From Spirochaetia bacterium (GTDB taxonomy: Bacteria; Spirochaetota; Spirochaetia; SZUA-6; Bin103): 64,000 bases of DNA. The stretch's first letter is position 1, and every line of letters begins with the position of its first letter. Under the pieces are notes generated by a model. It was given only the letters and a program-made list of their open reading frames with translations, was not told the DNA's origin and made no database searches. Shown one piece after another: positions 19,283 through 34,501 of the stretch. The position numbers and the translations under genes were made by a program. The DNA is taken from assembly GCA_965208575.1 (NCBI GenBank), contig CBDBOV010000005.1, positions 512,001 through 576,000 of the forward strand. The letters are read 5' to 3'.

Positions 19283-21061
19283 ATGCGGATATCGAGAATC
19301 CAGATTCAGAACTTTCGGAACTTCAAGGCTCTCGATGTTTGTCTGGGGCGCAGCACGGTGATCGTCGGCGAGAATAAGATCGGAAAGACGAACCTGCTGC
19401 ACGCGATTCGGCTCGTCCTTGACCCGTCGTTGCCTGACACTGCGCGGCAGTTGAGGGATGAGGACTTCTGGGACGGGCTACCGCGGCCGGTAGCTCGGGA
19501 ACAAAAGATTACGGTCTCGATTGATCTGGCGGAGTTTGAGGAGGACGAGAACCAAGTTGCATTGCTGTGTGAGCATCTAGTGGAGCCTGAGCCAATGGTT
19601 GCTCGATTGACGTATGTCTTTCAGTGTTTAGACACCGTCGAGGGCGAGCCTACCAAGGAGTCCGACTACGAGTTTTTCCTCTACGGTGGAGATAGGCCAG
19701 AAAGCCGTCTGGATTTTGGTCTTAGGCACCGTCTACCTCTTGATTTGTTGCCGGCACTTCGCGACGCTGAGGGCGACCTTGGAAGCTGGCGACGTTCTCC
19801 TCTACGCCCGCTCCTCGACGGTGTGGGCGGACGTATTAGTCGGGACGAACTTAGGACGCTTTCCGAGAACATTTCCGCAGCTACCGAAGCTGTGGCGCAG
19901 AACGAGGAAGTGAAGGGCCTCGTCCAGGCTATCAATACTCGCGTGGCCGATATGGTGGGTTCCAATCACTCTGTGGAGACAGAACTCGGCTTTTCTCCGG
20001 GTGATCCAGGGCGGCTGTTGCGAGCGTTGCGCCTGTTCATAGATGGGAGAAGGCGCGAGATCGGAGCTGCAAGCCTGGGATCAACGAACGTGCTCTACCT
20101 CACGCTTAAGGCTCTCGGACTTGATCAAGCAGTCGCGGATGGACAGCGCCATCACACGTTTCTGGCAATAGAGGAGCCGGAGGCGCACCTGCATCCTCAT
20201 CTTCAGCGACTCGTCTACCGCGACTTTCTTCGTTCTGAGGAGCAGCAAGACGACCCACGACCAATAACGGTCATCCTCACGACGCACTCACCGCACATTG
20301 TGAGCGTCGCGCCGCTGCACTCCCTTGTCCTGCTGCGCAAGGCGAGTGATGGCCAGAGTAGCGAGGGTGTATCGACGGCCCAACTAGAACTCACGCCTGA
20401 AGTTGTGGCCGACCTAGAGCGATATCTTGACGTTACTCGCGGCGAAATGCTCTTCGCTAAGGGCGTGCTTCTTGTCGAAGGTGACGCCGAGCGTTTCCTT
20501 CTGCCCTCTCTTGCCAATGCTAATGGGATCGATTTCGACGAGCTCGGGATTACCGTATGCTCCGTAGCGGGTACGAATTTTTTGCCTTACATGGAGTTGC
20601 TCGGTGACTGCGGGTTGCAGATCCCTGTAGCTGTCGTGACAGATGGAGATCCGGTAGACGACGGGAAGAAGCGTGGAGAGGCTCGAGTCCGAAGGCTACT
20701 CAAGGCTATCGTTGCACCGGAGGATTTGGACGGACGCACGAGAAGTCAGAGGCTGTGTATGGCAAGGGAACGAGGGCTCTTCGTTGGAGAACACACTTGT
20801 GAGATAGACCTGTTTCGGAGTGGCCTCCATGACGAGATCAGTCAGACACTGTTCGATCTCGCTCCGGGCGACGCTGTAAGGACTAGGGCGCAGCAATGGC
20901 AGGCCGAGCCAGATAGTGTGGATCCGGCTCGGCTTATGAAGGACATAACTGCGATCGGGAAGGGTCGCTTTGCGCAACACTTATCGACGCAGATCACCGC
21001 TGGGGTGTGGCCAGACTACATTGGAGAAGCCGTGACGTATGTCCGCAATCGCTGCCGTTAG
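19283..21061 (+). CDS. gajA: Gabija GajA-like OLD family ABC-ATPase/TOPRIM nuclease
   Basis: IQNFRNF, GENKIGKT, IEEPEAHLHP, TTHSP, TOPRIM VEGDAE and VTDGD; overlaps a UvrD gene. Confidence 0.85.
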   Translation: MRISRIQIQNFRNFKALDVCLGRSTVIVGENKIGKTNLLHAIRLVLDPSLPDTARQLRDEDFWDGLPRPVAREQKITVSIDLAEFEEDENQVALLCEHLVEPEPMVARLTYVFQCLDTVEGEPTKESDYEFFLYGGDRPESRLDFGLRHRLPLDLLPALRDAEGDLGSWRRSPLRPLLDGVGGRISRDELRTLSENISAATEAVAQNEEVKGLVQAINTRVADMVGSNHSVETELGFSPGDPGRLLRALRLFIDGRRREIGAASLGSTNVLYLTLKALGLDQAVADGQRHHTFLAIEEPEAHLHPHLQRLVYRDFLRSEEQQDDPRPITVILTTHSPHIVSVAPLHSLVLLRKASDGQSSEGVSTAQLELTPEVVADLERYLDVTRGEMLFAKGVLLVEGDAERFLLPSLANANGIDFDELGITVCSVAGTNFLPYMELLGDCGLQIPVAVVTDGDPVDDGKKRGEARVRRLLKAIVAPEDLDGRTRSQRLCMARERGLFVGEHTCEIDLFRSGLHDEISQTLFDLAPGDAVRTRAQQWQAEPDSVDPARLMKDITAIGKGRFAQHLSTQITAGVWPDYIGEAVTYVRNRCR

Positions 21062-22865
21062 ACCATCATCCACGTACCGGTATGCCGTCGAGGAGCTTCG
21101 AGGAAACCCCGGTCAGTGGCAGGCCTACAATGCCGTACGGCACTGCGCTGTACTTGCGGGCCCGGGCAGCGGCAAGACGAAGACACTCACGGTGAAGATT
21201 GCGAAATTGCTGGTCGAGAGCGTCCGGGAGCCACGCGGGTTGGCTTGTATCACCTACAATTCGGAGTGCGCACGCGAGCTAGTGACCAGACTCGAACGGT
21301 TAGGAGTCTATAGAGCTGACCACGTCTTCATCGGTACCGTTCACTCGTTCTGCCTCAGGAGGGTATTGATCCCCTACGTCGCTCTATCGGCGATCGAACT
21401 TCCGCAGGACTTCCGGGTAGCACAACCGAGTGAACAGGATACCCTATTCGGCCGAGCAGTCGAACTGGCAATCGGCGCGGACGAGCCACCGGGGCGCTGG
21501 AGGACACGAGCCGATGAGTACCGGCGCACGCACCTCGATCGAAGCTCCGACGAGTGGCAGGAGGACGAGCAGCTCGCATCACTCGTCGCCGAATACGAGT
21601 GCCTGTTGCGACAACGCGGGATGATCGACTTCGACGATATGGTGCTGTTGGGGCTGAGACTGATTGAGTCGCAGCGCTGGGTGCGAAGGGCGCTCCACGC
21701 GAAGTTCCCGTTCATCATCGTGGACGAATACCAAGATCTGGGCGTTCCACTTCATCGGATCGTGCGGAGCCTGTGCTTTCAAGCTGGTTCGTGTCTGTTT
21801 GCTGTTGGTGACCCTGATCAGTCGATCTATGGTTTCAACGGAGCTCGTCCCGAGCTACTTCGCCGCTTGGCTGATTCGCCACGCGTGGAGTCGATTCGTT
21901 TGCCGTTCAACTACCGCAGTGGTCCTACGATTGTCCGGGCCTCGGAAGTCGCCCTAGGTGAGGTGCGAGGCTACGAAGCACGAGGTGTTGGCAGGGGAAC
22001 TGTCGACCTACACGAGCGTCGGGGCGGTCTTCGAGACCAAGCACGGTACATCTGTGGGCAACTGATTCCAAATGCGATGGAGCGCGTCGAAGGCTTGCGG
22101 ATCGGTGATGTTGCTGTGCTCTATCTGGACAAGAATGACGGAGACGTGATTGCTGGGGTGGCAAGCGAGCATCGTGTTCCAACCATGAGAATAGACAGGG
22201 GCGCCCCCTACCCGAAGGCGCCGTTGACACGGTGGTTAGAAGACTGTGCCGCGTGGTGTGGAGGTGGCTGGAAGGTTGGCGCCCCCAGGTTGTCGTCCCT
22301 CCTGGCTACCTGGGCCTCGATCGTGAGGATCCCTGTCTCGTCTGATGCGCGATGGCATCACCACAAGGTGTGCTTGGTGCGCTTCCTTTTGTCGCATCGG
22401 AGTGGCGAGCTACCGCTTCGGGATTGGCTGACGAGGTTCTGGAAGGATTGTCTTGGTACACTCGACTCGGACACTACGCTGCGCGACGAGCGGGATGTGC
22501 TGGCGAGCGTCACCGAGGCCTCCAAAGTCAACGGCGCTATCGGCGAATGGAACGTGCGTCTCTTTGGTGGACAGGGCGGTTCGCCCGATCACTTGAATCT
22601 CATCACTCTGCACAGTGCGAAGGGGCTGGAATTCAGAGTTGTCGTCATGATGGGTATGGAACAGGGAAGAATTCCGCGCTGGGACGCTAGCGAACAGAAA
22701 AAGCGCGAAGAGCGCCGGCTGTTTTATGTCGGCCTCAGCCGGGCCAAGGACGAAGTCCACTTGACCTACTCGGGCTGGACAGCGAACCAGTATGGCCGCC
22801 GGTTCTGGAACGGTCCGTCTGAATTCCTTGTGGAAATTCGTGATAGCCTCCTGACGGACGTGTAA
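21039..22865 (+). CDS. gajB: Gabija GajB-like UvrD/SF1 helicase
   Basis: AGPGSGKT, GTVHSF, VDEYQD, VGDPDQSIYGF, NYRS, TLHSAKGLEF, EERRLFYVGLSRA. Confidence 0.85.
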   Translation: MSAIAAVRPSSTYRYAVEELRGNPGQWQAYNAVRHCAVLAGPGSGKTKTLTVKIAKLLVESVREPRGLACITYNSECARELVTRLERLGVYRADHVFIGTVHSFCLRRVLIPYVALSAIELPQDFRVAQPSEQDTLFGRAVELAIGADEPPGRWRTRADEYRRTHLDRSSDEWQEDEQLASLVAEYECLLRQRGMIDFDDMVLLGLRLIESQRWVRRALHAKFPFIIVDEYQDLGVPLHRIVRSLCFQAGSCLFAVGDPDQSIYGFNGARPELLRRLADSPRVESIRLPFNYRSGPTIVRASEVALGEVRGYEARGVGRGTVDLHERRGGLRDQARYICGQLIPNAMERVEGLRIGDVAVLYLDKNDGDVIAGVASEHRVPTMRIDRGAPYPKAPLTRWLEDCAAWCGGGWKVGAPRLSSLLATWASIVRIPVSSDARWHHHKVCLVRFLLSHRSGELPLRDWLTRFWKDCLGTLDSDTTLRDERDVLASVTEASKVNGAIGEWNVRLFGGQGGSPDHLNLITLHSAKGLEFRVVVMMGMEQGRIPRWDASEQKKREERRLFYVGLSRAKDEVHLTYSGWTANQYGRRFWNGPSEFLVEIRDSLLTDV

Positions 22866-23066
22866 CCTTGAACTATGATGGGCGATGCGTACCTAGCGTG
22901 GTTTCGGGTTGGCAAATGACTGCATCCCCGGCCATTACTTGTGGTGTAGTATTGGTTCACGGTCACGCGTTGGGGGCAGGGTGGGTATGCCGTAGGGTGT
23001 CTAGTACAGGGCTTACAGACGAGTGAACGAGCGACGGAGGCTCCGTTCGAAGGGAGTAGCGCGACG

Positions 23067-25139
23067 ATGAGGGATGGCGAGTTGAACTGGATCGCGAATT
23101 ACATCTGGGGTATCGCCGACGATGTGCTGCGCGACCTCTACGTGCGTGGTAAGTACCGGGATGTGATCCTGCCGATGACGGTGCTTCGCCGCCTCGACGC
23201 GGTGCTGGAAGGCACCAAGCGGGACGTCCTAGACATGAAGGCTTCGCTCGACGCCGCCGAAGTGGTGGAGCAGGACCCGGCGCTACGACAGGCGGCAGGC
23301 CAAGCGTTCTACAACACCTCCCGATTCACCTTGCGCGACCTGCGCGCCCGTGCCAACCGCCAGCAGCTCACCGCCGACTTCACGGTGTACCTCGACGGGT
23401 TTTCGCCCACTGTGCAGGACATTCTCGACAACTTCGAGTTCCGCAACCAGATCCCACGGCTGTCCCGCGCCGACGCCCTGGGCACCCTGATCGAGAAGCT
23501 CACCTCGCCCGACATCAACCTGAGCCCCGACCCGGTGCGCCACGCCGACGGCTCGGTCAAGCATCCCGGCCTCGACAACCACGGCATGGGCACGATCTTC
23601 GAGGAGCTGGTGCGGCGCTTCAACGAGGAGAACAACGAGGAGGCGGGCGAGCACTGGACCCCGCGCGACGCCGTGCGGTTGATGGCGAAGCTGGTCTTCC
23701 TGCCCATCGCCGACCAGATCAGCTCCGGGACCTACCTGCTGTACGACGGCGCCTGCGGCACGGGCGGCATGCTGACCGTGGCCGAGCAGACGCTGCAGGA
23801 ACTCGTCGCCGAGCGTGATAAGGAGGTTGCCACCCACCTGTACGGCCAGGAGATCAACGCCGAGACCTACGCCATCTGCAAGGCAGACCTGCTGCTGAAG
23901 GGTGAGGGCGAGGCCGCCGACAACATAGTCGGAGGCCCCGAGCATTCCACCCTGTTCAAGGACGCCTTCCCGTCGCACGAGTTCGACTTCATGCTCTCCA
24001 ATCCGCCCTACGGCAAGAGCTGGAAGACCGATTTGGAGCGCATGGGCGGCAAGCGCGACATGCGCGACCCCCGTTTCGTGATCGAGCACGCCGGCGACCC
24101 CGAGTACTCCCTGGTGACCCGCTCCAGCGACGGCCAGATGCTGTTCCTGGCCAACAAGCTTTCCAAGATGAAGCACGGCACCGCGCTCGGCAGCCGCATC
24201 GCCGAGGTACACAACGGCAGTTCGCTGTTCACCGGCGCCGCCGGTCAGGGCGAGAGCAACATCCGCCGCTGGATCATCGAGAACGACTGGCTGGAGGCGA
24301 TCGTCGCCCTGCCGCTCAACATGTTCTACAACACCGGCATCGCCACCTACGTCTGGGTGCTCACCAACCGCAAGCCCGAGCATCGCCGCGGCAAGGTGCA
24401 GCTCATCGACGCCACGGGCTGGCACCGTCCGCTGCGCAAGAATCTGGGCAAGAAGAACTGCGAGCTCGGCGAGGAGGACATCACCCGAATCTGCGATACC
24501 TTCCTCGCGTTTGAGGAGACGGAGCAGAGCAAGATCTTCGACAATGACACCTTCGGCTACTGGAGGGTCACGGTGGAGCGTCCCCTGCGAATTGAAGGAG
24601 CCGACCCCAACCGCCCCTATAAGGCCGCCGAGATCAAGAAACTCAAGGAAACCGGCGAGCGTAGCGAGACGGCGCCGCCGATCATCAGGAAGATCCACAA
24701 GCGAGGCATCGACGCTGATCCACTACACGGCCGGTTCGCAGCCTCCGTCGACGGAAAGCCGGCCGTTGTGGAGTACGAGCCCGACACCGAGATGCGCGAC
24801 ACCGAGCAGATCCCTCTGCAGGAGGCTGGTGGCATCGAAGCCTTCCTGAGGTGCGAGGTCCTGCCCTACGCCTCTGACGCTTGGTACCGGCCGGACAGCG
24901 TGCAAACCGGCTACGAGATCAGCTTCACCCGCTACTTCTATAAACCAAAACCCATGCGTACTCTGGTAGAGATACGTGCTGATATCCTCGCGCTGGAGCG
25001 AGAAACGGAGGGACTGCTGACAGACATCCTAGCACTTGAGCCGGGCATGTCGGAACTTGCGCCCCATCTGGGTGTACAACCACGTAAACGGACGCAAGGG
25101 TTGCCCCGTCATCGACATTCAGACTTGGGAACTGAGTGA
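23067..25139 (+). CDS. hsdM: Type I RM methyltransferase subunit (intact)
   Basis: IWGIADDVLR, AGEHWTPRDAV, YDGACGTGGML, YGQEIN, SNPPYG (N6-adenine motif IV), FYNTGIATY, GYEISFTRYFY. Confidence 0.95.
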   Translation: MRDGELNWIANYIWGIADDVLRDLYVRGKYRDVILPMTVLRRLDAVLEGTKRDVLDMKASLDAAEVVEQDPALRQAAGQAFYNTSRFTLRDLRARANRQQLTADFTVYLDGFSPTVQDILDNFEFRNQIPRLSRADALGTLIEKLTSPDINLSPDPVRHADGSVKHPGLDNHGMGTIFEELVRRFNEENNEEAGEHWTPRDAVRLMAKLVFLPIADQISSGTYLLYDGACGTGGMLTVAEQTLQELVAERDKEVATHLYGQEINAETYAICKADLLLKGEGEAADNIVGGPEHSTLFKDAFPSHEFDFMLSNPPYGKSWKTDLERMGGKRDMRDPRFVIEHAGDPEYSLVTRSSDGQMLFLANKLSKMKHGTALGSRIAEVHNGSSLFTGAAGQGESNIRRWIIENDWLEAIVALPLNMFYNTGIATYVWVLTNRKPEHRRGKVQLIDATGWHRPLRKNLGKKNCELGEEDITRICDTFLAFEETEQSKIFDNDTFGYWRVTVERPLRIEGADPNRPYKAAEIKKLKETGERSETAPPIIRKIHKRGIDADPLHGRFAASVDGKPAVVEYEPDTEMRDTEQIPLQEAGGIEAFLRCEVLPYASDAWYRPDSVQTGYEISFTRYFYKPKPMRTLVEIRADILALERETEGLLTDILALEPGMSELAPHLGVQPRKRTQGLPRHRHSDLGTE

Positions 25140-25420
25140 TGAAGCCTGAGCCTTCCACCGAGCGCTTCGATTGCGTTGGCTACACGCGTGACGTCCGCGA
25201 CCGAATCGGCGCCGAGATCGCGACGATGGACGACGGCGAGTTGACGCGATGCCTGCGCGGCACCCGGCCCCCGTCGCCCAATTACTCGCGCCAGACGAGA
25301 GTCTGGAGGATGGGCGTCCAGAACGGTATGATCACGATGATCGAGATCATCTTTGAACTCGCCCGGCTGCACTTCGAGCGGCTTCGGGAGCCGGATCGAA
25401 GCATCCCGACAGTCAACTAG
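25136..25420 (+). CDS. Small hypothetical protein (possibly a remnant)
   Basis: 94-aa ORF overlapping the hsdM stop (GTGA) and ending 12 nt before the PRTase-like gene. No motif recognised. Confidence 0.35.
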   Translation: MMKPEPSTERFDCVGYTRDVRDRIGAEIATMDDGELTRCLRGTRPPSPNYSRQTRVWRMGVQNGMITMIEIIFELARLHFERLREPDRSIPTVN

Positions 25421-25432
25421 AGGAACACCGCT

Positions 25433-26443
25433 TTGAAGCCCCGGCGTGATTTGCTGGAATCCATCGCTGACACCATCAAAGACTACCGCGTCGATGACCT
25501 TCCAGAGCCGACGCCGGACCATGTCGACAAGTGGATCCGTCAGTTCGAGCCGGATGTCCAGCGACCGATGTTGCACGAGATGGATCATGTTCTGCGCCAG
25601 ACCTACTTCTCGAAAGCGGCCGTACTCGGGATTTTCGAGAGAGTGATCAAGAACGTCGAGCTGACCAACGGCGATCCTCATGGATTCTGGCGTTCAGCCC
25701 ACCTGCTCGATATTCAGCAGGACGGGAACAGCCAAGCTGATATTCGGCGACTGTTCTGCGACGCCGTCAAGCGACAGTGGGGCCTAACCACAGGTGCCGG
25801 TGAATGCGTGTTCGTGTACCTGGACGACGTGCTATTCAGTGGGAGTCGGATAGGGAACGATCTATCGGCCTGGATCACCGGTGAGTCCCCCTCGGCCGCG
25901 ACTGTACATGTGGTGGTGATCGCTGCGCACCGTTTCGGGGAGTGGAAGTGCCGAGAGCGGCTCAAGAAGGCTGCGAGCGATGTGGGCAAGCGGGTGCAGT
26001 TTCACTTCTGGTCAGCGTTGCTTATTGAAAATCGACTCTCGTACCGCAACGTATCGGAGGTACTATGGCCCGTAACTGTTCCGAACGACGACGCCCTGTC
26101 GGCGTACCTCGCAGAGGAAACGAGATTTCCCTTCAGGCCGCGAGTGCCCGGCGGACAGTCCGAACATCGGATATTTTCTTCAGAAGAGGGGCGTCAGTTG
26201 TTGGAGAGGGAGCTGTTGCTTGCCGGAATCCAAATCCGGTCATTGAGCCAGCATCCAAGTCCGGCGATGCGGCCGCTGGGATTCAGCCCGTTCGGCCTCG
26301 GCTTTGGCTCTACGATCGTAACCTACCGCAATTGCCCGAACAACGCACCGCTGGCGCTCTGGTGGGGTGATCCCGAGGCTGACCAGAATCATCCCTTTTC
26401 CGGGTGGTGGCCGCTCGTGCAGCGTAAAGCCTATGCACGGTAG
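25433..26443 (+). CDS. Phosphoribosyltransferase-like protein (conflict-system type)
   Basis: PRPP-binding-loop-like FVYLDDVLFSGSRI, QQDGNSQ, C-terminal YRNCPNNAPLALWW and WWPLVQRK; GAGG RBS before a TTG start. Confidence 0.75.
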   Translation: MKPRRDLLESIADTIKDYRVDDLPEPTPDHVDKWIRQFEPDVQRPMLHEMDHVLRQTYFSKAAVLGIFERVIKNVELTNGDPHGFWRSAHLLDIQQDGNSQADIRRLFCDAVKRQWGLTTGAGECVFVYLDDVLFSGSRIGNDLSAWITGESPSAATVHVVVIAAHRFGEWKCRERLKKAASDVGKRVQFHFWSALLIENRLSYRNVSEVLWPVTVPNDDALSAYLAEETRFPFRPRVPGGQSEHRIFSSEEGRQLLERELLLAGIQIRSLSQHPSPAMRPLGFSPFGLGFGSTIVTYRNCPNNAPLALWWGDPEADQNHPFSGWWPLVQRKAYAR

Positions 26444-26449
26444 AGAGGT

Positions 26450-28564
26450 ATGATGGTACCTAGCGCATCGGCTGCGCTTCACCGCCAGAAACGTACGTAT
26501 GACCGCACGAATAGCGTTGTGTTCCTCAAAACGAGGGAGCGGTACGGCGGTCTGTCGAATATGGCCGGTGGGTTTCCCCTACGGGTGAACGGCCTGCGCA
26601 TTCTCACCTCTGAAGCGCTCTATCAAGCGTGTCGGTTTCCGCACCGGCCCGATCTGCAGCGGATGGTCATCGAGCAGCGTAGTCCGATGACGGCCAAGAT
26701 GAAGAGCAAGCCACACAGATATGAGACGCGGCGGGACTGGAACCGAGTGCGTGTCGCCATCATGCGTTGGTGCCTGCGCGTCAAGCTCGCACAGAATGCC
26801 GCCGCGTTCCGCAATCTGCTGTTGAGCACCGGAGACCTCGCGATCGTAGAGGAATCCCGAAGGGACGACTTCTGGGGAGCGAATCCTATAGACGAAAATA
26901 GGCTCGTCGGTGTGAACGCGCTCGGGCGGTTGCTGATGGAGTTACGGGAACTGGTCAAGAGCGAGCCTCAAGACAGCCTGCTGGACGTAGACCTCCCGTC
27001 AATACCCCATTTTCTGCTCGACGGGCGCCCTATTCAGCGGATTTTTTCCGGACGGGTGTGTGGCAGAGGCAAAGAGAAGGGAGATCCCCCGGCTTCGGCC
27101 GAGCAGCTTCGCACCGTAGACTCGAAGGTAGCGTCGTCACTTCTGAACTCCGCGATACCAACGGACTCTTCGCCCGCACGGAAGGATTCGCCGGAACATC
27201 GGAAGGAGGACGATCTGGCGCCTTCGGGTACGTATGCGGGCTACAAGAACTCCGGCGTCGAGTGGTTGGGAGAGGTGCCGACTCATTGGGACGTGCTGAG
27301 AGTCAAGGCATGGCTGGGCGTCAACCAACTGGTGCTGCCGGAAGACACCGATCCAGACTACACGTTCGACTACGTGGACATCGGGTCTGTGACGACCGGG
27401 CAGCTCTCGGCAAGACCCGAACGAATTCGTTTCGGAGACGCACCGTCTCGCGCTAGGCGCGTGGTCAGGCCCGGCGACACGCTTTTTTCGACAGTGAGGA
27501 CCTATCTGAAGGCGGTCTGGCATGTGGAACACTTGCGTACCGATCTGATCGCGTCAACTGGTTTCGCAGTATTTACGCCGCGGCACGGCACGGTCCCGAA
27601 GTTCACGAGCTACTTCTTCCAGAGTAATCCGTTCACAGACCGCGTAGCGGCTGAGTCAGTGGGAATGGCTTATCCAGCCATTGCCGAGGCGAGATTGGGG
27701 ACGCTCGAAGTGTGTGTGCCGCCTTTCGCGGAGCAAGCTGAGATCGTCGGCTTCCTCGACGACGCCGACCGGCACATTCGGCGCTACATCCGTGCCAAGC
27801 AGAAGTTGATCGTACTGCTGGAGGAGCAGAAGCAGGTCCTCATCCACGAGGCCGTCACCGGGAGGATCGACGTGCGGACAGGGCGACCGTATCCGTCCTA
27901 TAAGGACTCGGAGATCAAGTGGTTGGGGGCGGTGCCTACGCATTGGCAAGTACGCGCAGCAAAGTGGTACTTCCGGGAGTCCAACCACCGATCGGATACC
28001 GGTTCCGAGGAACTTCTATCTGTGTCACACATTACAGGTGTGACGCCGCGCAGTGGTAAGAGGAATGTCTCGATGTTCAAGGCTGAGTCGAACGTAGGGT
28101 ATAAGTTATGTGCGCCTGGCGACATTGTAGTGAATACGATGTGGGCTTGGATGTCCGCTTTGGGGATTGCCAGACAAAGCGGTATCGTCAGCCCGTCATA
28201 CGCTGTCTATCGCCCACGCGTGTCTTCGACGCTGAACGGAGAGTATGTCGACCTTTTGCTACGCACCGCGCCATACCAGAACGAGTACGTATGTAGGTCC
28301 ACTGGCATTCACTCTTCCCGATTAAGGTTGTATCCGGAGGACTTCTTGCGCATTCGGCTTCTTTGTCCGCCGGCGGAGGAGCAAGGCTCCATCGTTGATT
28401 TCGTCAATCGGGCATCAGACGTCACCGTTCGGTACATTGACCGTACATGCGACGAAATCGCTCGTCTTGAAGAGTACTGGGAACGCCTGATCGTCGATGT
28501 CGTCACGGGGAAGTTCGATGTTCGGGGGGCCACGGCTGAAATGAGGACGCTTGTTCAATTCTGA
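26450..28564 (+). CDS. hsdS: Fusion of an N-terminal NADAR (YbiA/DUF1768) domain to a complete type I RM specificity subunit
   Basis: aa ~20-170 NADAR: GGLSNM, TSEALYQA, DWN, KLAQN, LLLSTG, IVEES..DDFWG, GVNALGRLLMELR. Low-complexity linker at aa ~195-255. HsdS: YKNSGVEWLGEVPTHW-TRD1-PPFAEQ...AVTG, then YKDSEIKWLGAVPTHW-TRD2-PPAEEQ...DVVTGKFDVR. One uninterrupted frame. Confidence 0.9.
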   Translation: MMVPSASAALHRQKRTYDRTNSVVFLKTRERYGGLSNMAGGFPLRVNGLRILTSEALYQACRFPHRPDLQRMVIEQRSPMTAKMKSKPHRYETRRDWNRVRVAIMRWCLRVKLAQNAAAFRNLLLSTGDLAIVEESRRDDFWGANPIDENRLVGVNALGRLLMELRELVKSEPQDSLLDVDLPSIPHFLLDGRPIQRIFSGRVCGRGKEKGDPPASAEQLRTVDSKVASSLLNSAIPTDSSPARKDSPEHRKEDDLAPSGTYAGYKNSGVEWLGEVPTHWDVLRVKAWLGVNQLVLPEDTDPDYTFDYVDIGSVTTGQLSARPERIRFGDAPSRARRVVRPGDTLFSTVRTYLKAVWHVEHLRTDLIASTGFAVFTPRHGTVPKFTSYFFQSNPFTDRVAAESVGMAYPAIAEARLGTLEVCVPPFAEQAEIVGFLDDADRHIRRYIRAKQKLIVLLEEQKQVLIHEAVTGRIDVRTGRPYPSYKDSEIKWLGAVPTHWQVRAAKWYFRESNHRSDTGSEELLSVSHITGVTPRSGKRNVSMFKAESNVGYKLCAPGDIVVNTMWAWMSALGIARQSGIVSPSYAVYRPRVSSTLNGEYVDLLLRTAPYQNEYVCRSTGIHSSRLRLYPEDFLRIRLLCPPAEEQGSIVDFVNRASDVTVRYIDRTCDEIARLEEYWERLIVDVVTGKFDVRGATAEMRTLVQF

Positions 28565-28605
28565 GGAACCGGCTGACAAGTAAGCAATCGACCAGGAGGC
28601 GAAGT

Positions 28606-28903
28606 GTGATGGATGGAAAGCCTTCCGTGAAGTGGAACGGAGGCCTAGCAAGATTAGTGGCGCGTGGGCATTCACGGGAACACGGGTGCCGGTGTATACG
28701 CTGTTCAAGAACCTGAGAGAGGCGCTGGCCAATTGAATCTGCCGTCCGATGAGGCATGTCGGTTATGTTGTGGGAGCGCCTTTCGGCGCATTCGGCGGAT
28801 AGTCTGCCGATTGGCGTGTGGTTCGCCTTCGGACCAGGGACGTCGGCGAGGGCGATTGCGGCCGTGGGTGCTGGTGAGATCATTGAAGTGCCCATTCGGG
28901 TGA
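28606..28903 (+). pseudogene. Collapsed remnant of the DUF433 / PIN-like TA pair
   Basis: Segments match 38408-38952 (e.g. TGGGCATTCACGGGAACACGGGTGCCGGTGTA and GAAGTGCCCATTCGG), with large internal deletions. Confidence 0.8.
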
Positions 28904-28909
28904 AGTGAT

Positions 28910-31900
28910 ATGGCTACGGACACCACCGAACGGGCGCTGGAACGGCTGCTCTGCAGGGCACTGGCGGGCCACCCATGCGATCCGCCGGTCGAGGGCACCG
29001 TCGCAGATCCTCCGGCCGGCTACGGCGGAGTAGGGTGGAGCGGCGGAAGTTTCCATGACTACGACCGCGAATACTGCGTTGACTTGGTACAGTTCGCGGC
29101 GTTCTTGTGGGACACGCAGCCGGAGGCCGCCGAGGCGCTGGGACTGTGGCAGGACAGTCTTCCACGGCGAGCGTTTCTGACACGGCTGCAAGGCGAGGTG
29201 AGCAGGCGCGGCACGATCGATGTGCTGCGCAACGGGGTCAAGCACCGCGCGCTGCACGTCGAGTTGTTCTACGGCACACCGTCGGAGCACAACCGGCAGG
29301 CGCAGGAACGGTACGGGCAGAACCGGTTCACCGTGACCCGGCAGCTTCGCTACAGCCGGGATGAGGCGCAGCGGGCGCTGGACATCGGGTTGTTCATCAA
29401 CGGGTTGCCGGTGTTCACGTTCGAGCTGAAGAACAGCCTCACCAAGCAAACGGCGGATGACGCGGTGTTGCAGTACCAGCAGGATCGCAACCCGCGCGAG
29501 AAGCTGTTCGCGTTCGGGCGCTGCATCGCGCACTTCGCGGTGGACGAGCGCGAGGTGCAGTTCTGCACCCATCTCAAGGGAAAGGCATCGTGGTTCCTAC
29601 CGTTCAATCGCGGCTGGAACGACGGAGCGGGCAACCCGCCCAACCCACACGGGCTGGCGATCGATTACCTGTGGCGCGAGGTGCTGCCGACGGTGAGCGT
29701 GACCAACATCCTGGAGAACTACGCCCAGGTGGTAGAGGAGAAGGACGACAAGACCGGCAAGAAGCGGCGGGCGCAGGTCTGGCCGCGCTACCACCAGCTC
29801 GACGTGGTACGCCGCCTGCTGGCCGACGCCGAATCCCACGGGGCGGGCCGGCGCTACCTGATCCAGCACTCGGCCGGCAGTGGCAAGAGCAATTCCATTG
29901 CTTGGCTGGCGCATCAGCTCATCGGGTTGACCAGAGACGATGCACCGGTGTTCGACTCGATCATCGTGGTCACCGACCGGCGCATCCTCGACCGGCAGAT
30001 CCGCGACACCATCCGGCAGTACGCCCAGGTGTCGGCGACGGTCGGGCACGCCGACCGCTCGGGCGATCTGCGCCGGTTCATCGAGAGCGGCAAGAAGATT
30101 ATCATCTCCACGGTGCAGAAGTTCCCGTTCATCCTCGACGAGATCGGCAACGAGCAGCGCGGGCGCAGCTTCGCGATCATCATCGACGAGGCGCACTCCA
30201 GCCAGGGCGGCCGTACCAGCGCGGCGATGGCGCAGGCGCTGTCGGCGGCCGGCGAGGTGGACGAGGAGGAAACCTACGAGGACCAGATCAACCGCTTGAT
30301 GGAGTCGCGCAAGCTTTTGCCGAACGCCAGTTACTTCGCGTTTACCGCCACCCCCAAGAACAAGACGCTGGAGATCTTCGGTACTCTCGACCCGCAGCCG
30401 GACGGGACGGTGAGGCACTACGCGTTCCACAGCTACACCATGAAGCAGGCGATCCAGGAGGGGTTCATCCTCGACGTGCTCGCCCGCTACACGCCGGTGG
30501 CCAGCTACTACCGGCTGGCCAAGACGGTGGAGGACGACCCGGAGTTCGACGTCAAGAAGGCGCAGAGGAAGCTACGCCGGTTCGTGGAGGGCAGCGACCA
30601 CGCGACCCGCCTCAAGGCCGAGATCATGGTCGACCACTTCCACGACCAGGTGCTGGCGCAGGGCAAGATCGGCGGCGCGGCGCGGGCGATGGTGGTAACC
30701 AACGGCATAGAACGCGCCATCCAGTACTACCACGCCATCAGCGACTACCTGGCCGAGCGCAAGAGCCGCTACCAGGCCCTGGTCGCCTTCTCCGGCGAGC
30801 ACGAGTACGGCGGCGTGAGGCTGACCGAGGCGTCGTTGAACGGTTTGCCGTCAGCGCAGATCGCTGACCGCTTCCAGGAGGATCCGTACCGCTTCCTGGT
30901 GTGCGCGGACAAGTTCCAGACCGGCTACGACGAGCCGCTGCTGCACACCATGTACGTGGACAAGACGCTGTCCGGCATCAAGGCCGTGCAGACCCTGTCG
31001 CGTCTCAACCGGGCGCACCCCAAGAAGCACGACGTGTTCGTACTCGATTTTCTGAACGACGCCGACACCATCCGCGAGGCGTTCGCGGACTTCTACCGGG
31101 CGACGATCCTGGCCGACGAGACCGACCCCAACAAGCTGCACGACCTGCAGGCCGACCTGGACGCTGCCCAGGTCTATTCCGAGGAGCAGGTAGAGGAACT
31201 GGTGCGGCGCTACCTTGGCGGTGCCGAGCGCGACCGGCTCGATCCGATCCTGGATGATTGTGTGGCGGTGTACCTGCGCGAGCTGGACGAGGACGGACAG
31301 GTGGAGTTCAAGGGCAATGCCAAGGCATTCGTCCGCACCTACGGCTTTCTCTCCGCGGTGCTGCCGTACGGCAACCCCGGCTGGGAGAAGCGCTCGATCT
31401 TCCTCAACCTGCTGGTGCCAAAGCTGCCGGCGCCGGAGGAGCCCGACCTTGCCAAGGGGATCCTGGACGCAATCGACCTGGACAGCTACCGGGTGGAGAA
31501 ACAGGCGATGCAGAAGATCCTGCTGCCGGACGAGGACGCCGAGATCGGCCCGGTGCCCACCTCGGCCGGCGGCTCCCGCCCGGAGCCGGAGCTGGACCGG
31601 CTCTCCGTCATCCTGCGCACCTTCAACGAGCACTTCGGCGACATCCGGTGGGAGGACGCCGACCGCGTGCGGCAGCTCATCATCGAGACCATCCCGTCCC
31701 GCGTCGCCGCCGACACCGCGTTCCGCAACGCGCGGCAGAACTCGGACCGCCAGAACGCGCGCATCGAGCACGACAAGGCACTACTCCGCGTGATGACCTC
31801 CGTGATGCGCGACGACACCGAGCTGTTCAAGCAGTTCATGGACAACGACAGCTTCAAGCGCTGGCTCACCGATACCGTGTTCTCGCTTGCCTACGAACCG

Positions 31901-31915
31901 GCGGGCCCGGCCTGA
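28910..31915 (+). CDS. hsdR: Type I RM endonuclease subunit (intact, 1001 aa)
   Basis: LDIGLFINGLPVFTFELKN nuclease motif, QHSAGSGKS, VVTDR, IIDEAHSSQ, AFTATP, KFQTGYDEP, VQTLSRLNR. Confidence 0.95.
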   Translation: MATDTTERALERLLCRALAGHPCDPPVEGTVADPPAGYGGVGWSGGSFHDYDREYCVDLVQFAAFLWDTQPEAAEALGLWQDSLPRRAFLTRLQGEVSRRGTIDVLRNGVKHRALHVELFYGTPSEHNRQAQERYGQNRFTVTRQLRYSRDEAQRALDIGLFINGLPVFTFELKNSLTKQTADDAVLQYQQDRNPREKLFAFGRCIAHFAVDEREVQFCTHLKGKASWFLPFNRGWNDGAGNPPNPHGLAIDYLWREVLPTVSVTNILENYAQVVEEKDDKTGKKRRAQVWPRYHQLDVVRRLLADAESHGAGRRYLIQHSAGSGKSNSIAWLAHQLIGLTRDDAPVFDSIIVVTDRRILDRQIRDTIRQYAQVSATVGHADRSGDLRRFIESGKKIIISTVQKFPFILDEIGNEQRGRSFAIIIDEAHSSQGGRTSAAMAQALSAAGEVDEEETYEDQINRLMESRKLLPNASYFAFTATPKNKTLEIFGTLDPQPDGTVRHYAFHSYTMKQAIQEGFILDVLARYTPVASYYRLAKTVEDDPEFDVKKAQRKLRRFVEGSDHATRLKAEIMVDHFHDQVLAQGKIGGAARAMVVTNGIERAIQYYHAISDYLAERKSRYQALVAFSGEHEYGGVRLTEASLNGLPSAQIADRFQEDPYRFLVCADKFQTGYDEPLLHTMYVDKTLSGIKAVQTLSRLNRAHPKKHDVFVLDFLNDADTIREAFADFYRATILADETDPNKLHDLQADLDAAQVYSEEQVEELVRRYLGGAERDRLDPILDDCVAVYLRELDEDGQVEFKGNAKAFVRTYGFLSAVLPYGNPGWEKRSIFLNLLVPKLPAPEEPDLAKGILDAIDLDSYRVEKQAMQKILLPDEDAEIGPVPTSAGGSRPEPELDRLSVILRTFNEHFGDIRWEDADRVRQLIIETIPSRVAADTAFRNARQNSDRQNARIEHDKALLRVMTSVMRDDTELFKQFMDNDSFKRWLTDTVFSLAYEPAGPA

Positions 31916-32068
31916 ATCGCTGCAGCGGCGCGCCAGACGCTGCCCAGCCTGCCTGGTGTGCGACTCACGGCATCCAACGCAGAGGTGGCGAAGGCCTCCC
32001 CATGGTTTGGTGTTGTGGGCGCGTAGGCCTATACCTGCCTCAGAGTCAATGATTTGGTACGCTTTCGG

Positions 32069-32158
32069 AGTTCGCACCAGTTCGCACCAGTTCGCACCAG
32101 TTCGCACCAGTTCGCACCAGTTCGCACCAGTTCGTACCAGTTCGTACCAGTTCGTACC
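32069..32158. repeat. Tandem repeat of a 10-bp unit, 9 copies (6x AGTTCGCACC then 3x AGTTCGTACC)
   Basis: Counted directly. Head-to-tail with no spacers. Confidence 0.95.
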
Positions 32159-32569
32159 CGAAGACCCTTGACTCCGGCGGCGCCGCCGTGGGATCGTTAG
32201 ACCGGATTTTGCTTGGTGGTATATAGCCGTCGACACGAAGCAGAACTAAGGCGATGAGGTGACTCACCGCCTAAACCAGGAGTTGAAGTTGCGCACAATA
32301 TGTTCGTTGTATCTGATCACGCTATGCGTATGGTCGCTATCTTCAGGCACGAATCAACCTGAGTCTTTCGACGTCTTACCCAGCACCGAGAATCGATCAG
32401 TCGCCCTGACTCTTTTCGATACAAATGGTTCCGTACCGATGACTATTCATCGTCCAGAAGACGCGTCGACAGTCGGTCGTGACGCAGGCACCACGAAGAT
32501 AATTGGCGGATAGCTCGATCTCAGGGTGTCGACGTTGAGCAATCATTCACTCGCTTCCCGTCCGATATC

Positions 32570-33718
32570 GTGTCGCTTCAAGTGTATGACGCTTTCGGAA
32601 AACGATTGAATCAGGCGCCAAGCAACGACGAAACCGACACGATCTATGACTTCTTTTTCGAATTAGAACAGAGTCAGGCTACACCGATCGCATTGTTTTT
32701 CTATGTTGACGCCAACATCGAGACTCAGACATACGACGGCGAGCTCATTGTTGACACGTTTGTCCCGAGCGTTACATGGATCGCAGGATCACACGTCAAG
32801 GATAGTACGACCATCTTGAATGTAGCTATACCAACCGTCGGACAACTATACGCTATCGGTGGACGAGAGATTATAAAAAAGCAGCTTGCTTTGATGGAAT
32901 CCGTTTTGGCGAAGAACGAATATGCATCGGGATTGCTCAACGAAATCGCGGCCCGTATCGACCCGATCCTGATCGGATACGAGCGTCGCGACAAGAGAAA
33001 GTGGCCCACTTTTGTCGATTGCGAAGGATGTCCTCAGATGGTAGTAGTACCATCGGGATCATTTAGCGCTACAGACTCACTTATCGGCAGCGTCAGCGAG
33101 TCTCTCGATAGTTTTGCGATAGGATCGCATGAGGTATCACTTGCGGAATTTGCTGAGTTCGTTCGCGAAACGCAGCACAGTACCAATGCTGATTGTTTTG
33201 GATTTGATGACCAGACCGAAGAGTGGGCGTACGTTTCGACTGCGAATTGGCGGGATCCCGGGTACCGTACTGTGGCCAGCGAGCCTGTAACCTGCATTAG
33301 CTGGGACGATGCCGTCGCGTACGTGGAATGGCTTTCGAGAAAAGCGCGTTTGAAGTATCGGCTTGTCAGCTTCATTGAGTCGATGTACGTGGCGGAGCGC
33401 TATCTGCGGGACGCTCCCCCTGAGACTACGATTGAGGGGCTTGTGAACGACAAAAAGAGACAGAGTTATGAGTGGGTAGTCTGTTCTCATGTTACAGAAA
33501 TTATCGATGACGGCACTGGCCAACGCGTTGCATGCGATGGAGCCGTAGGAATCGAAGTGATCATTCCCGGCACAACCGCCACCTGGATCCCCGGGGATAG
33601 TAGCGGGGCTAATCACGCGCAAGGATTTCGCATTTCTCGCGACTTAGTTCAGGCCGTCGGGGGAAACTGGATGGTGGTCCTGCGGGGGAATGAGACAGTT
33701 GAGCGTATGCGACGGTGA
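32570..33718 (+). CDS. Protein with C-terminal FGE-sulfatase (SUMF1/C-type-lectin-like) domain; the ORF at 32259-32513 may be its detached N-terminus
   Basis: DCEGCPQMVVVPSGSF, FAIGSHEVS, NWRDPG, PVTCISWDDAVAYVEWLS, KYRL, GFRISRDL. Clearly lower GC than the flanks. Confidence 0.72.
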   Translation: MSLQVYDAFGKRLNQAPSNDETDTIYDFFFELEQSQATPIALFFYVDANIETQTYDGELIVDTFVPSVTWIAGSHVKDSTTILNVAIPTVGQLYAIGGREIIKKQLALMESVLAKNEYASGLLNEIAARIDPILIGYERRDKRKWPTFVDCEGCPQMVVVPSGSFSATDSLIGSVSESLDSFAIGSHEVSLAEFAEFVRETQHSTNADCFGFDDQTEEWAYVSTANWRDPGYRTVASEPVTCISWDDAVAYVEWLSRKARLKYRLVSFIESMYVAERYLRDAPPETTIEGLVNDKKRQSYEWVVCSHVTEIIDDGTGQRVACDGAVGIEVIIPGTTATWIPGDSSGANHAQGFRISRDLVQAVGGNWMVVLRGNETVERMRR

Positions 33719-33733
33719 TCGCCGAGCTTTCTC

Positions 33734-34501
33734 GTGACTAGAGGGCCACATGCCCACGTGGGCACACCGGTGGCTATAGGGTCTCTCATCTTGATGGTCG
33801 TGATCGCTGTAGCAGTTGTTTTGGTTAAGGGAAGAACACCAGATAGAGACCTATTTGTTCTAATGGGCATTCCGACGATTCTATATGTAGTTTACTTCGC
33901 CTTTCCGCGGGTTCGAAGGTGGCATGGACGGGTTCACTACTTGGCGATTTGCGCGGCTTTGTTGTGCGGAATAGCCGTCCTGATTTTCGACTATGATGAA
34001 ATTCCGATAGTCGGGTGGATGGGATTCTCCACATTAACACTGATAAGCACAGTAGCGTTCTTCATCTATTTTATACCACTATCGTGGTTGCGCTCTGATA
34101 GCGACCGGTCAGCTGCGTCTGATTTGGCAGAACAACTGCAATCGAGAATCGTGTCAATAAGGGAGCAGTTTGATGGATTTTACAGTTCGATAGCCCAGGA
34201 TGGAAAACGGTTGGATAACATCTTGTTGAGAGTCAGGCAGGAGATGGAGGACCATACGAAGGAATTGCGAGAAGCAGAGAGTGAGTTGACGAGGAATCGG
34301 GCACTAAGCTCCGTGTACAGAAGGTTGGCTGAGATGGCTAGAGATGACGCAGAAGAGATCATATCGGCTATCCAAGGGACAAGCCACATTCGTCAGTATC
34401 TCGTGACATTTTCTATTGGCGTCGCGAGCGGGCTTGTGGTAAGATCGATTCCTAAGGTCGCGTTCATTAGCAATACTATAGCGCTTCTGTCAGGAGGCTA
34501 A
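33734..34501 (+). CDS. Membrane protein: about 4 N-terminal TM helices, coiled coil and C-terminal hydrophobic segment
   Basis: Hydrophobic stretches at aa ~12-118, heptad-like region at aa ~125-205; AT-richer DNA. Confidence 0.65.
   Translation: MTRGPHAHVGTPVAIGSLILMVVIAVAVVLVKGRTPDRDLFVLMGIPTILYVVYFAFPRVRRWHGRVHYLAICAALLCGIAVLIFDYDEIPIVGWMGFSTLTLISTVAFFIYFIPLSWLRSDSDRSAASDLAEQLQSRIVSIREQFDGFYSSIAQDGKRLDNILLRVRQEMEDHTKELREAESELTRNRALSSVYRRLAEMARDDAEEIISAIQGTSHIRQYLVTFSIGVASGLVVRSIPKVAFISNTIALLSGG

Follow-up and report, generated by a model that had tools for sequence, protein, structure and literature searches.

What does a NADAR domain do at the front of the DNA-specificity subunit of a restriction-modification (RM) system of type I, and why does the gene of a phosphoribosyltransferase (PRTase)-like protein stand directly before it? 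These questions are raised by a 64,000-nt stretch of the genome of a Spirochaetia bacterium (GenBank assembly GCA_965208575.1, contig CBDBOV010000005.1, positions 512,001 to 576,000; hereafter the window), in which hsdM is followed by a small open reading frame (ORF), the PRTase-like gene, a gap of 6 nt, a single 704-aa ORF that encodes NADAR and HsdS together, and hsdR. An earlier note on this DNA had set out the same gene order and quoted the motifs YLDDVLFSGS, NCPNN, LSNM, SEALYQA, LLSTG, VEESRRDDFWG and GVNALGRLLMELR; the order matches the ORF layout and all of the motifs are present in the translations. Here, we argue that the two proteins are almost certainly the known anti-phage pair DS-32, in a form embedded in a type I RM operon, and that the attachment of its NADAR member to HsdS is one of several recurrent, DNA-directed attachments that bear on how the pair may work.

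The PRTase-like protein, DS-32A, scores 382 bits against the NCBIfam model NF053875 (DS32_1_antiphage), with aa 7-331 aligned to model positions 1-322 of 322, and the NADAR part of the 704-aa protein, DS-32B, scores 265.6 bits against NF053876 (DS32_2_antiphage), with aa 15-195 aligned to model positions 1-181 of 181; a whole-genome search with the latter model gives 269.7 bits. Both proteins exceed the equivalog cut-offs of these models (250 and 240 bits, respectively). We have little doubt about the identity and the architecture of the pair, for which the 'candidate new system' of the earlier note has to be given up; embedding of this general kind has also been described. DS-32 is a two-gene anti-phage system validated in E. 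coli, the only system for which phage protection dependent on both genes has been reported, and, as far as the accessible text of the DefensePredictor preprint goes, of unknown mechanism; the same text describes its NADAR protein as structurally DarG-like and finds no similarity of DS-32A to DarT (bioRxiv 10.1101/2025.01.08.631726). In the accessible part of the journal version (Science 2026, PMC13092281), NADAR is mentioned in passing only.

The E. coli form provides a useful reference point for the window. One IMG/VR pair matches, at 99.8% identity, a stretch of the E. coli chromosome that occurs in 63 of 5426 complete E. coli genomes. The homologues there are annotated as 'phosphoribosyltransferase-like anti-phage protein' and 'NADAR family anti-phage protein' and belong to the nin region of a lambdoid prophage, with replication gene P on one side and ninE/rusA on the other. 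The window shares with DS-32 the adjacent, co-directional genes with the PRTase first, and their tight coupling, the gap of 6 nt (26444-26449) being accompanied by a Shine-Dalgarno-like GAGAGG stretch and then ATGATG. It differs in that its pair lies within a type I RM operon and in that its NADAR forms the N-terminal domain of a 704-aa fusion, whereas the NADAR of DS-32 as defined is a stand-alone protein of ~181-200 aa. The PRTase is only about 33% identical to that of the E. coli type, and NADAR only about 44%; where the E. coli type has a QSLSLF-type tail at its C-terminus, the window has an internal, degenerate linker motif.

DS-32A belongs to the Pfam family PRTase-CE (PF24390, E 4.7e-48) and consists of an N-terminal helical region, a type I PRTase core with the phosphoribosyl pyrophosphate (PRPP) loop VYLDDVLFSGSR, and a C-terminal extension, RNCPNN...WWGD, the helical region and the extension having no annotated counterpart. 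Its AlphaFold2 model has a predicted local distance difference test score (pLDDT) of 93.7, and the core fold superposes on UPRT (1i5e_B; VIA Z 9.5, root-mean-square deviation 2.8 over 118 residues), with UPRT, XGPRT and PyrR as the Foldseek matches. Because the DD and the G of the PRPP loop are invariant (Y129, D131, D132 and G137, in all 56 homologues compared) and the modelled fold is that of a type I PRTase, the enzyme looks active. How it relates to other PRTases of defence systems is less clear: the Foldseek and VIA searches returned generic type I PRTases only, ShosT not being among them, which still leaves room for a relationship; a profile of DS-32A run against the sequences of the PDB matched only the PRPP loop of PyrR (E about 0.3) and, spuriously, an EF-hand, with no match to any solved ShosT chain; and PADLOC assigned it only to PRTase_III-A, weakly (E 1e-4) and over no more than the C-terminal motif.

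The 704-aa protein carries both a NADAR domain (PF08719, aa 25-167, E 7.6e-24) and Methylase_S according to Pfam. The NADAR domain is YbiA-like (2b3w_A, E 7.7e-18) with a sub-threshold match to TIGR02464; PADLOC, which holds no strong model for either DS-32 protein, offered a weak match to PDC-M42C (E 1.2e-5) as the sole NADAR candidate. Residues E55, K83, E134, D139, W142 and G143 are invariant in 54 NADAR homologues, and as the SE, AK and VE..D.FWG positions are thus kept in fused and unfused proteins alike, this enzyme, too, looks active. Glu and Lys residues in the equivalent motifs of other NADARs are needed for the de-ADP-ribosylation of guanine (Schuller 2023, in its accessible part), and the residues of the window's NADAR would correspond to them one by one. 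The HsdS part is complete, aa 261-691 aligning to positions 10-432 of 436 of the PADLOC model Specificity_I (PDLC03191, E 6.4e-76). In an AlphaFold2 model built with 37 fusion homologues as input, NADAR is confidently folded to about residue 200 (pLDDT about 90), residues 202-258 fall below a pLDDT of 50 as a disordered linker of ~57 residues, and HsdS follows with two target recognition domains (TRDs) and long helices at 426-469 and 642-685. Being attached to HsdS, the NADAR domain should form part of the M2S methylase complex as well as of the R2M2S restriction complex.

Is this fusion an accident of one genome? The earlier note had itself raised a chance loss of a stop codon or an assembly error as the explanation that would undo its proposal, and we reject both on recurrence. 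With the NADAR part as query, 976 proteins of 387-1232 aa were matched, and Pfam finds NADAR and Methylase_S together in 97 of the 120 examined among the matches listed, in proteins of about 680-770 aa. In a sample of one genome per species, 326 loci were confirmed and the best 80 retained, which span Acidobacteriota, Chloroflexota, Pseudomonadota, Desulfobacterota, Planctomycetota, Verrucomicrobiota, Gemmatimonadota, Poribacteria and Cyanobacteria, among others. A single ORF for NADAR and HsdS, as in the window, is present in 45 of the 80 loci; 39 of the 45 have both hsdM and hsdR at their flanks, and the remaining six lie on short contigs. The same fusion occurs in 6 of 38 viral loci from IMG/VR and in 32 of 80 metagenome loci, both sets having been seeded with the PRTase. 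Across the genome, viral and metagenome loci, it is always NADAR that is fused and never the PRTase. Within the phylum of the window, a search of 401 genomes with NF053876 found the window's genome as the only positive, a sporadic distribution which suggests that the element probably spreads horizontally. One related locus (L006:9686-12161) looks decayed, its PRTase match being confined to the first ~54 residues and its NADAR stopping before a separate HsdS frame.

The two genes are firmly associated with each other. In 76 of the 80 genome loci, which were seeded with NADAR, the sequence directly upstream of NADAR has a full or partial match to the PRTase; whether a PRTase gene consistently precedes NADAR was a question of the earlier note. 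Among the four others, NADAR is at the start of the contig in L046, an unassigned 359-aa ORF takes the place of the PRTase in L076, NADAR stands alone among PhyH and glycosidase genes in L035, and L004 (L004:1-10402) is a type I RM operon that has NADAR::HsdS without a PRTase, the space between hsdM and NADAR::hsdS being taken by a PD-(D/E)XK nuclease of the YhcG type and by GmrSD, a type IV restriction enzyme. In the opposite direction, the PRTase has NADAR directly downstream in all 38 viral loci and, among the 76 metagenome loci that extend 150 bp or more beyond it, in 75; the sole exception (L260:1689-2036) has the first ~30 NADAR residues and then unrelated sequence, on a low-coverage contig that may be chimeric. 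The pair is thus near-obligate in the pattern expected of a toxin and its antidote, in that NADAR is sometimes found alone and the PRTase essentially never. For the RM family that hosts it, however, DS-32 is optional: of 63 HsdM-seeded IMG/VR loci with at least 3 kb of downstream sequence, five have both genes and 58 have neither, and GmrSD-like genes, YhcG and small ORFs are often present as other passengers between the hsd genes of relatives.

HsdS is not the only partner. The NADAR domain is also joined to the N-terminus of a DUF1156 adenine methyltransferase in nine genome loci, one viral and seven metagenome loci, and in one of these (L010:5364-16896) PADLOC identifies the partner as HmaB of the Hma system, with the gene order HmaA-PRTase-NADAR::HmaB-HmaC; others among the NADAR::HmaB loci are L048, L049, L052, L062, L064, L077, L079 and L103. 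These Hma fusions form two subfamilies between which HmaA is only about 31-34% identical. In seven further loci, NADAR is followed by a helix-hairpin-helix (HhH_3) module, recognized by Pfam in L011 and L023, by tblastn in L021, L033, L039 and L076, and by eye in the alignment in L045. A rarer architecture is seen in L034 (L034:452-2347), where NADAR continues into a tail of ~430 aa with weak matches to P-loop and Schlafen-type helicases.

A fourth feature is a short motif, Q-x-S/G-L-F-D/E, found in many of the proteins ~30 residues past the NADAR domain. In its strict form, Q..LF, it is present in 53 of 119 linkers or tails, where 500 shuffles gave 1.1 on average and never more than 6, and in 43 of 52 HsdS fusions. 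In the E. coli-type clade, 22 of 24 proteins end exactly in GQSLSLF, GQTMELF or GQTMDLF, as exemplified by GQSLSLF at the very C-terminus of DS-32B in L093:7008-7610 and in E. coli (L120:6999-7610). The ASSLLN of the window lies in register with the QxSLF-D of 36 other fusions. Proteins that bind the bacterial beta sliding clamp carry the consensus QL[SD]LF or QxxLxF, the delta subunit, for example, having QAMSLF, and by its resemblance to these the Q-x-S-L-F-type motif is a candidate clamp-binding site. No paper that links NADAR to a beta-clamp-type motif was found in the searchable literature.

The phylogeny of the domain indicates how these attachments came about. In a quick IQ-TREE of 119 NADAR domains, the E. 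coli-type proteins form one clade of short proteins throughout, and in the other clade (95 rows) HsdS fusions, HmaB fusions, HhH forms and short forms interleave, which argues that the tether has been gained or lost repeatedly; the HsdS label alone changes 14 times on the tree, with at least six of the changes forced by well-supported branches.

How, then, might the pair work? We lean, without great confidence, towards a writer/eraser pair of the toxin/antitoxin kind, embedded in the operon and with its eraser tethered to DNA. DS-32A would be the toxic or effector writer, attaching ribose-5-phosphate from PRPP to a nitrogen nucleophile, and NADAR would hydrolyse the resulting N-glycosidic bond, its DNA-directed tether being supplied by HsdS, HmaB, a helix-hairpin-helix domain or the beta-clamp-like motif. 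As the NADAR domain has repeatedly been placed on DNA-bound machines, DNA is where the eraser would most likely act, and the adduct would then most plausibly be on DNA bases, as a PRPP-dependent analogue of the guanine ADP-ribosylation by DarT1. A tethered eraser could keep the host DNA clean while the lesion accumulates on phage DNA, or in the host once the RM or replisome anchor has been put out of action by a phage, and abortive infection upon loss of the anchor would follow a guard logic akin to that of PrrC. A guard circuit, one of the models of the earlier note, is thus a possible part of the picture. In its most specific version, with DS-32A as a PRPP-dependent DNA-base phosphoribosyltransferase and NADAR as its eraser working through interchangeable tethers (beta-clamp motif, HhH, HsdS, HmaB), the proposal is a speculative one that we would not expect to hold in full; in the fused forms, the subunit that sets the self code of methylation would then also position the eraser, and phage proteins that block this subunit would unleash the lesion. 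The writer/eraser or toxin/antitoxin pair put forward in the earlier note is upheld as far as the pairing goes, and the asymmetry between the two genes fits it, while the chemistry is something that we infer.

Several points weigh against a DNA-tethered eraser. We found no precedent for a PRTase that phosphoribosylates DNA, and the model of DS-32A has no recognized DNA-binding domain. ShosT, the best-studied PRTase toxin of a defence system, is reported to disrupt purine metabolism, a soluble target (Pu 2025, in its accessible part). Stand-alone NADARs with neither tether nor motif exist (for example L019, L022, L031 and L068); the linker motif is degenerate in the window and in its closest relatives; and the match of the motif to the clamp-binding consensus is a presumed one. 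HsdS also binds its sites on phage DNA, so a tether does not by itself explain how self is told from non-self. Finally, with most members of the RM family lacking DS-32, the fusion could serve co-expression or co-inheritance only.

In one alternative, the substrate is a soluble metabolite: DS-32A would deplete PRPP or make a toxic nucleotide, the YbiA-like NADAR would hydrolyse the product, and the fusion to HsdS or HmaB, like the tail motif, would be a guard or regulatory device and nothing else, the antitoxin being inactivated or destabilised when a phage attacks the RM complex or the replisome. This explanation, which we regard as possible and yet distinctly the lesser prospect, draws on the action of ShosT on purine metabolism (Pu 2025; Yang 2026, in their accessible parts), on the closeness of the NADAR to YbiA, a small-molecule N-glycosidase, on the size of E. 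coli DS-32B, which at ~200 aa lacks a folded DNA-binding domain, and on the precedent of PrrC. It has more difficulty with the presence of four different DNA-directed tethers on one domain, which would be superfluous for a soluble substrate, and its principal model, ShosT, is matched by DS-32A neither at the level of the profile nor in PADLOC.

A second alternative holds that DS-32 is an independent cassette that came to lie between hsdM and hsdS, and that a tolerated loss of the stop codon was then spread horizontally with no coupling to restriction. Insertions into type I RM and Hma operons are common (Payne et al., bioRxiv 10.1101/2024.01.29.577857, in the text available), the RM family does without DS-32 in most of its loci, DS-32 functions alone in E. 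coli (according to the accessible text on that system), the linker is long and disordered, and copies that look decayed exist, as in L006, with its truncated PRTase and its NADAR separate from HsdS. Passive embedding is nevertheless improbable in our view, as the fusion has stayed in frame across NADAR lineages that are 60-73% identical, in many phyla and next to hypervariable TRDs, as an independent, analogous fusion to HmaB exists in two Hma subfamilies, and as the fused partner is invariably NADAR. Least convincing of all are two models of the earlier note, in which NADAR-HsdS strips ribosyl or ADP-ribosyl shields from DNA so that HsdR can cut, or the PRTase writes a second self-mark: NADARs do take ADP-ribose off DNA bases (Schuller 2023, in the part accessible) and L004 keeps NADAR::HsdS without a PRTase beside a GmrSD-type enzyme that targets modified DNA, but the PRTase is otherwise an almost obligate neighbour whose product, rather than a phage mark, is the simplest substrate for NADAR, a self-mark erased at HsdS sites by its own operon is hard to square with protection, and stand-alone DS-32 defends without any RM system (again in the available text), which together make these models very improbable.

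The DNA-tethered eraser can be placed among known systems by its parts. It resembles DarTG1 (DarT1-NADAR), in which a NADAR eraser likewise stands opposite an enzyme that forms an N-glycosidic ribosyl bond, in an anti-phage, DNA-centred system; NADAR reverses the ADP-ribosylation of guanine by DarT1 in DNA (Schuller 2023; this and the preceding statement rest on the accessible portions of the sources). The writer of DarTG1 is an ADP-ribosyltransferase and that of the window has a PRPP-type PRTase fold, the window's NADAR is YbiA-like, unlike that of DarTG1, and a Pfam scan of the locus ORFs found no ADP-ribosyltransferase domain. ShosTA and the type III-A retrons likewise use a PRTase-family effector or toxin, and the Pfam PRTase-CE family names mark neighbours of the retrons. 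In ShosTA, as far as the available sources describe it, the antitoxin that counters the PRTase, ShosA, binds DNA but not the toxin itself; this antitoxin is DprA-like, in place of which the window has NADAR, and PADLOC gave no match to ShosT or ShosA. For a type III-A retron, no reverse transcriptase was found among the ORFs scanned (19283-33718), and no dedicated search for its non-coding RNA was made.

The embedding itself has good precedent. According to the accessible text of Payne et al. (bioRxiv 10.1101/2024.01.29.577857), type I RM and Hma operons commonly have defence cassettes embedded in them, the effector PrrC being found almost nowhere but within type I RM, and the window likewise nests a second module co-directionally among RM genes. 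What sets it apart is that a component of the passenger is covalently joined to the DNA-recognition subunit of the host system, for which the parallel in HmaB is a join to the methylation subunit. In the text available, that study mentions NADAR only in the list of abbreviations of a figure legend, and neither PRTase nor HsdS. The earlier note knew of no characterized system with such an architecture, which does not hold for the pair, being DS-32, and does hold for the fusion: NADAR::HsdS, NADAR::HmaB, the HhH forms and the tail or linker motif were not found in the searchable literature, which leaves out supplementary tables that may list homologues, and all of these are apparently undescribed.

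The remaining features of the operon (Table 1) are those of an intact type I RM system, of a widespread family, within a defence island. HsdM and HsdR match type I models of Pfam and PADLOC over their full length, the former with HsdM_N and an N6-adenine methyltransferase domain and the latter with an N-terminal nuclease region and an SF2 motor, as type I RM requires, and the view of the earlier note that NADAR is tethered to HsdS inside an intact operon agrees with the genome loci described above. HsdM is 84-86% identical over about 655 residues to its counterparts in L002 and L007, and HsdR 77-80% over about 999 residues to those in L002, L007 and L072. Directly upstream of hsdM lies a complete Gabija system, whose gajA (19283-21061; GajA, 592 aa) and gajB (21039-22865; GajB, 608 aa) overlap by 23 nt, and it is this neighbour that places the operon in a defence island.

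Table 1. Features of the DS-32-bearing type I RM operon and its surroundings, in window coordinates
Feature	Position	Strand	Basis
Gabija system, directly upstream of hsdM	19283-22865	+	PADLOC GajA 1.8e-219, GajB 2.1e-220
hsdM, methyltransferase subunit of the type I RM system, 690 aa	23067-25139	+	Pfam N6_Mtase 8.2e-49, HsdM_N 6e-20; PADLOC MTase_I PDLC03029, 776 bits
Small ORF, 94 aa	25136-25420	+	No family match
PRTase-like ORF (DS-32A), 336 aa	25433-26443	+	NF053875, PRTase-CE
Single 704-aa ORF, NADAR::HsdS	26450-28564	+	Pfam NADAR and Methylase_S
NADAR domain (DS-32B), aa 1-200 of the 704-aa ORF	26450-27049	+	NF053876
Disordered Pro/Ser/charged linker, aa 202-258	27053-27223	+	pLDDT < 50
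ASSLLN, aa 228-233, degenerate linker motif	27131-27148	+	Fusion alignment
Complete HsdS, aa 259-704, two TRDs and two conserved long helices	27224-28564	+	PADLOC, AlphaFold2 model
50-aa frame, weakly DUF433-like, in the hsdS-hsdR gap	28584-28733	+	Pfam E 0.0024, 18.1 bits, cut-off 23.6
hsdR, type I restriction subunit, 1001 aa	28910-31915	+	Pfam HSDR_N, SWI2_SNF2, ResIII, T1R_D3-like; PADLOC REase_I 2.1e-45

Two small frames lie among the genes of the operon. The 94-aa ORF before the PRTase gene was considered as a component of DS-32 and rejected: it has no match in Pfam, NCBIfam or PADLOC and it is not conserved, recurring in one of the 80 genome loci (L007, as an 82-aa ORF beside other embedded genes, with 40% identity over aa 1-52), and in most genome loci the PRTase directly follows hsdM. 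The lack of a family match and this single recurrence suggest that it is probably a remnant of an earlier embedded cassette. In the same region of L007 (3975-6500), the hsdM frame runs ~180 residues beyond the usual end of HsdM, and is followed by the small ORF akin to the 94-aa ORF, by one of 72 aa and by one of 613 aa, the last of which looks GmrSD/DUF262-like by eye. The second frame lies in the 345-bp gap between the 704-aa ORF and hsdR, where the earlier note had seen a toxin-antitoxin scar; a 50-aa DUF433-like frame is indeed present there and makes the idea of a toxin-antitoxin remnant plausible, although its match is a weak one that falls below the Pfam cut-off, so the frame is a possible remnant at most.

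A scan for promoters and terminators (22700-32300) gave nothing above chance, and a tRNA search found none in the window. Just 3' of hsdR, at 32069-32158, the 10-bp unit AGTTCGCACC is repeated nine times, and past this repeat the GC content falls to 0.48-0.54 (32000-34500), in a region that includes the gene of an FGE-sulfatase-domain protein (32570-33718).

What the locus offers, then, is a clue from comparative genomics to the mechanism of a validated system: the natural fusions turn the mechanism of DS-32 into a specific hypothesis, that of a reversible ribose-phosphate lesion at DNA whose eraser is kept on the DNA of the host. They are also a rare instance of a defence cassette physically attached to the restriction system in which it is embedded, and this attachment could sense anti-restriction or couple two layers of immunity. 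If the hypothesis is true, DS-32 would represent a new enzymatic modification of DNA together with a new family of fusions for DNA repair or erasure that are programmable through HsdS guidance, and restriction and reversible DNA-lesion systems would share a single DNA-recognition module.

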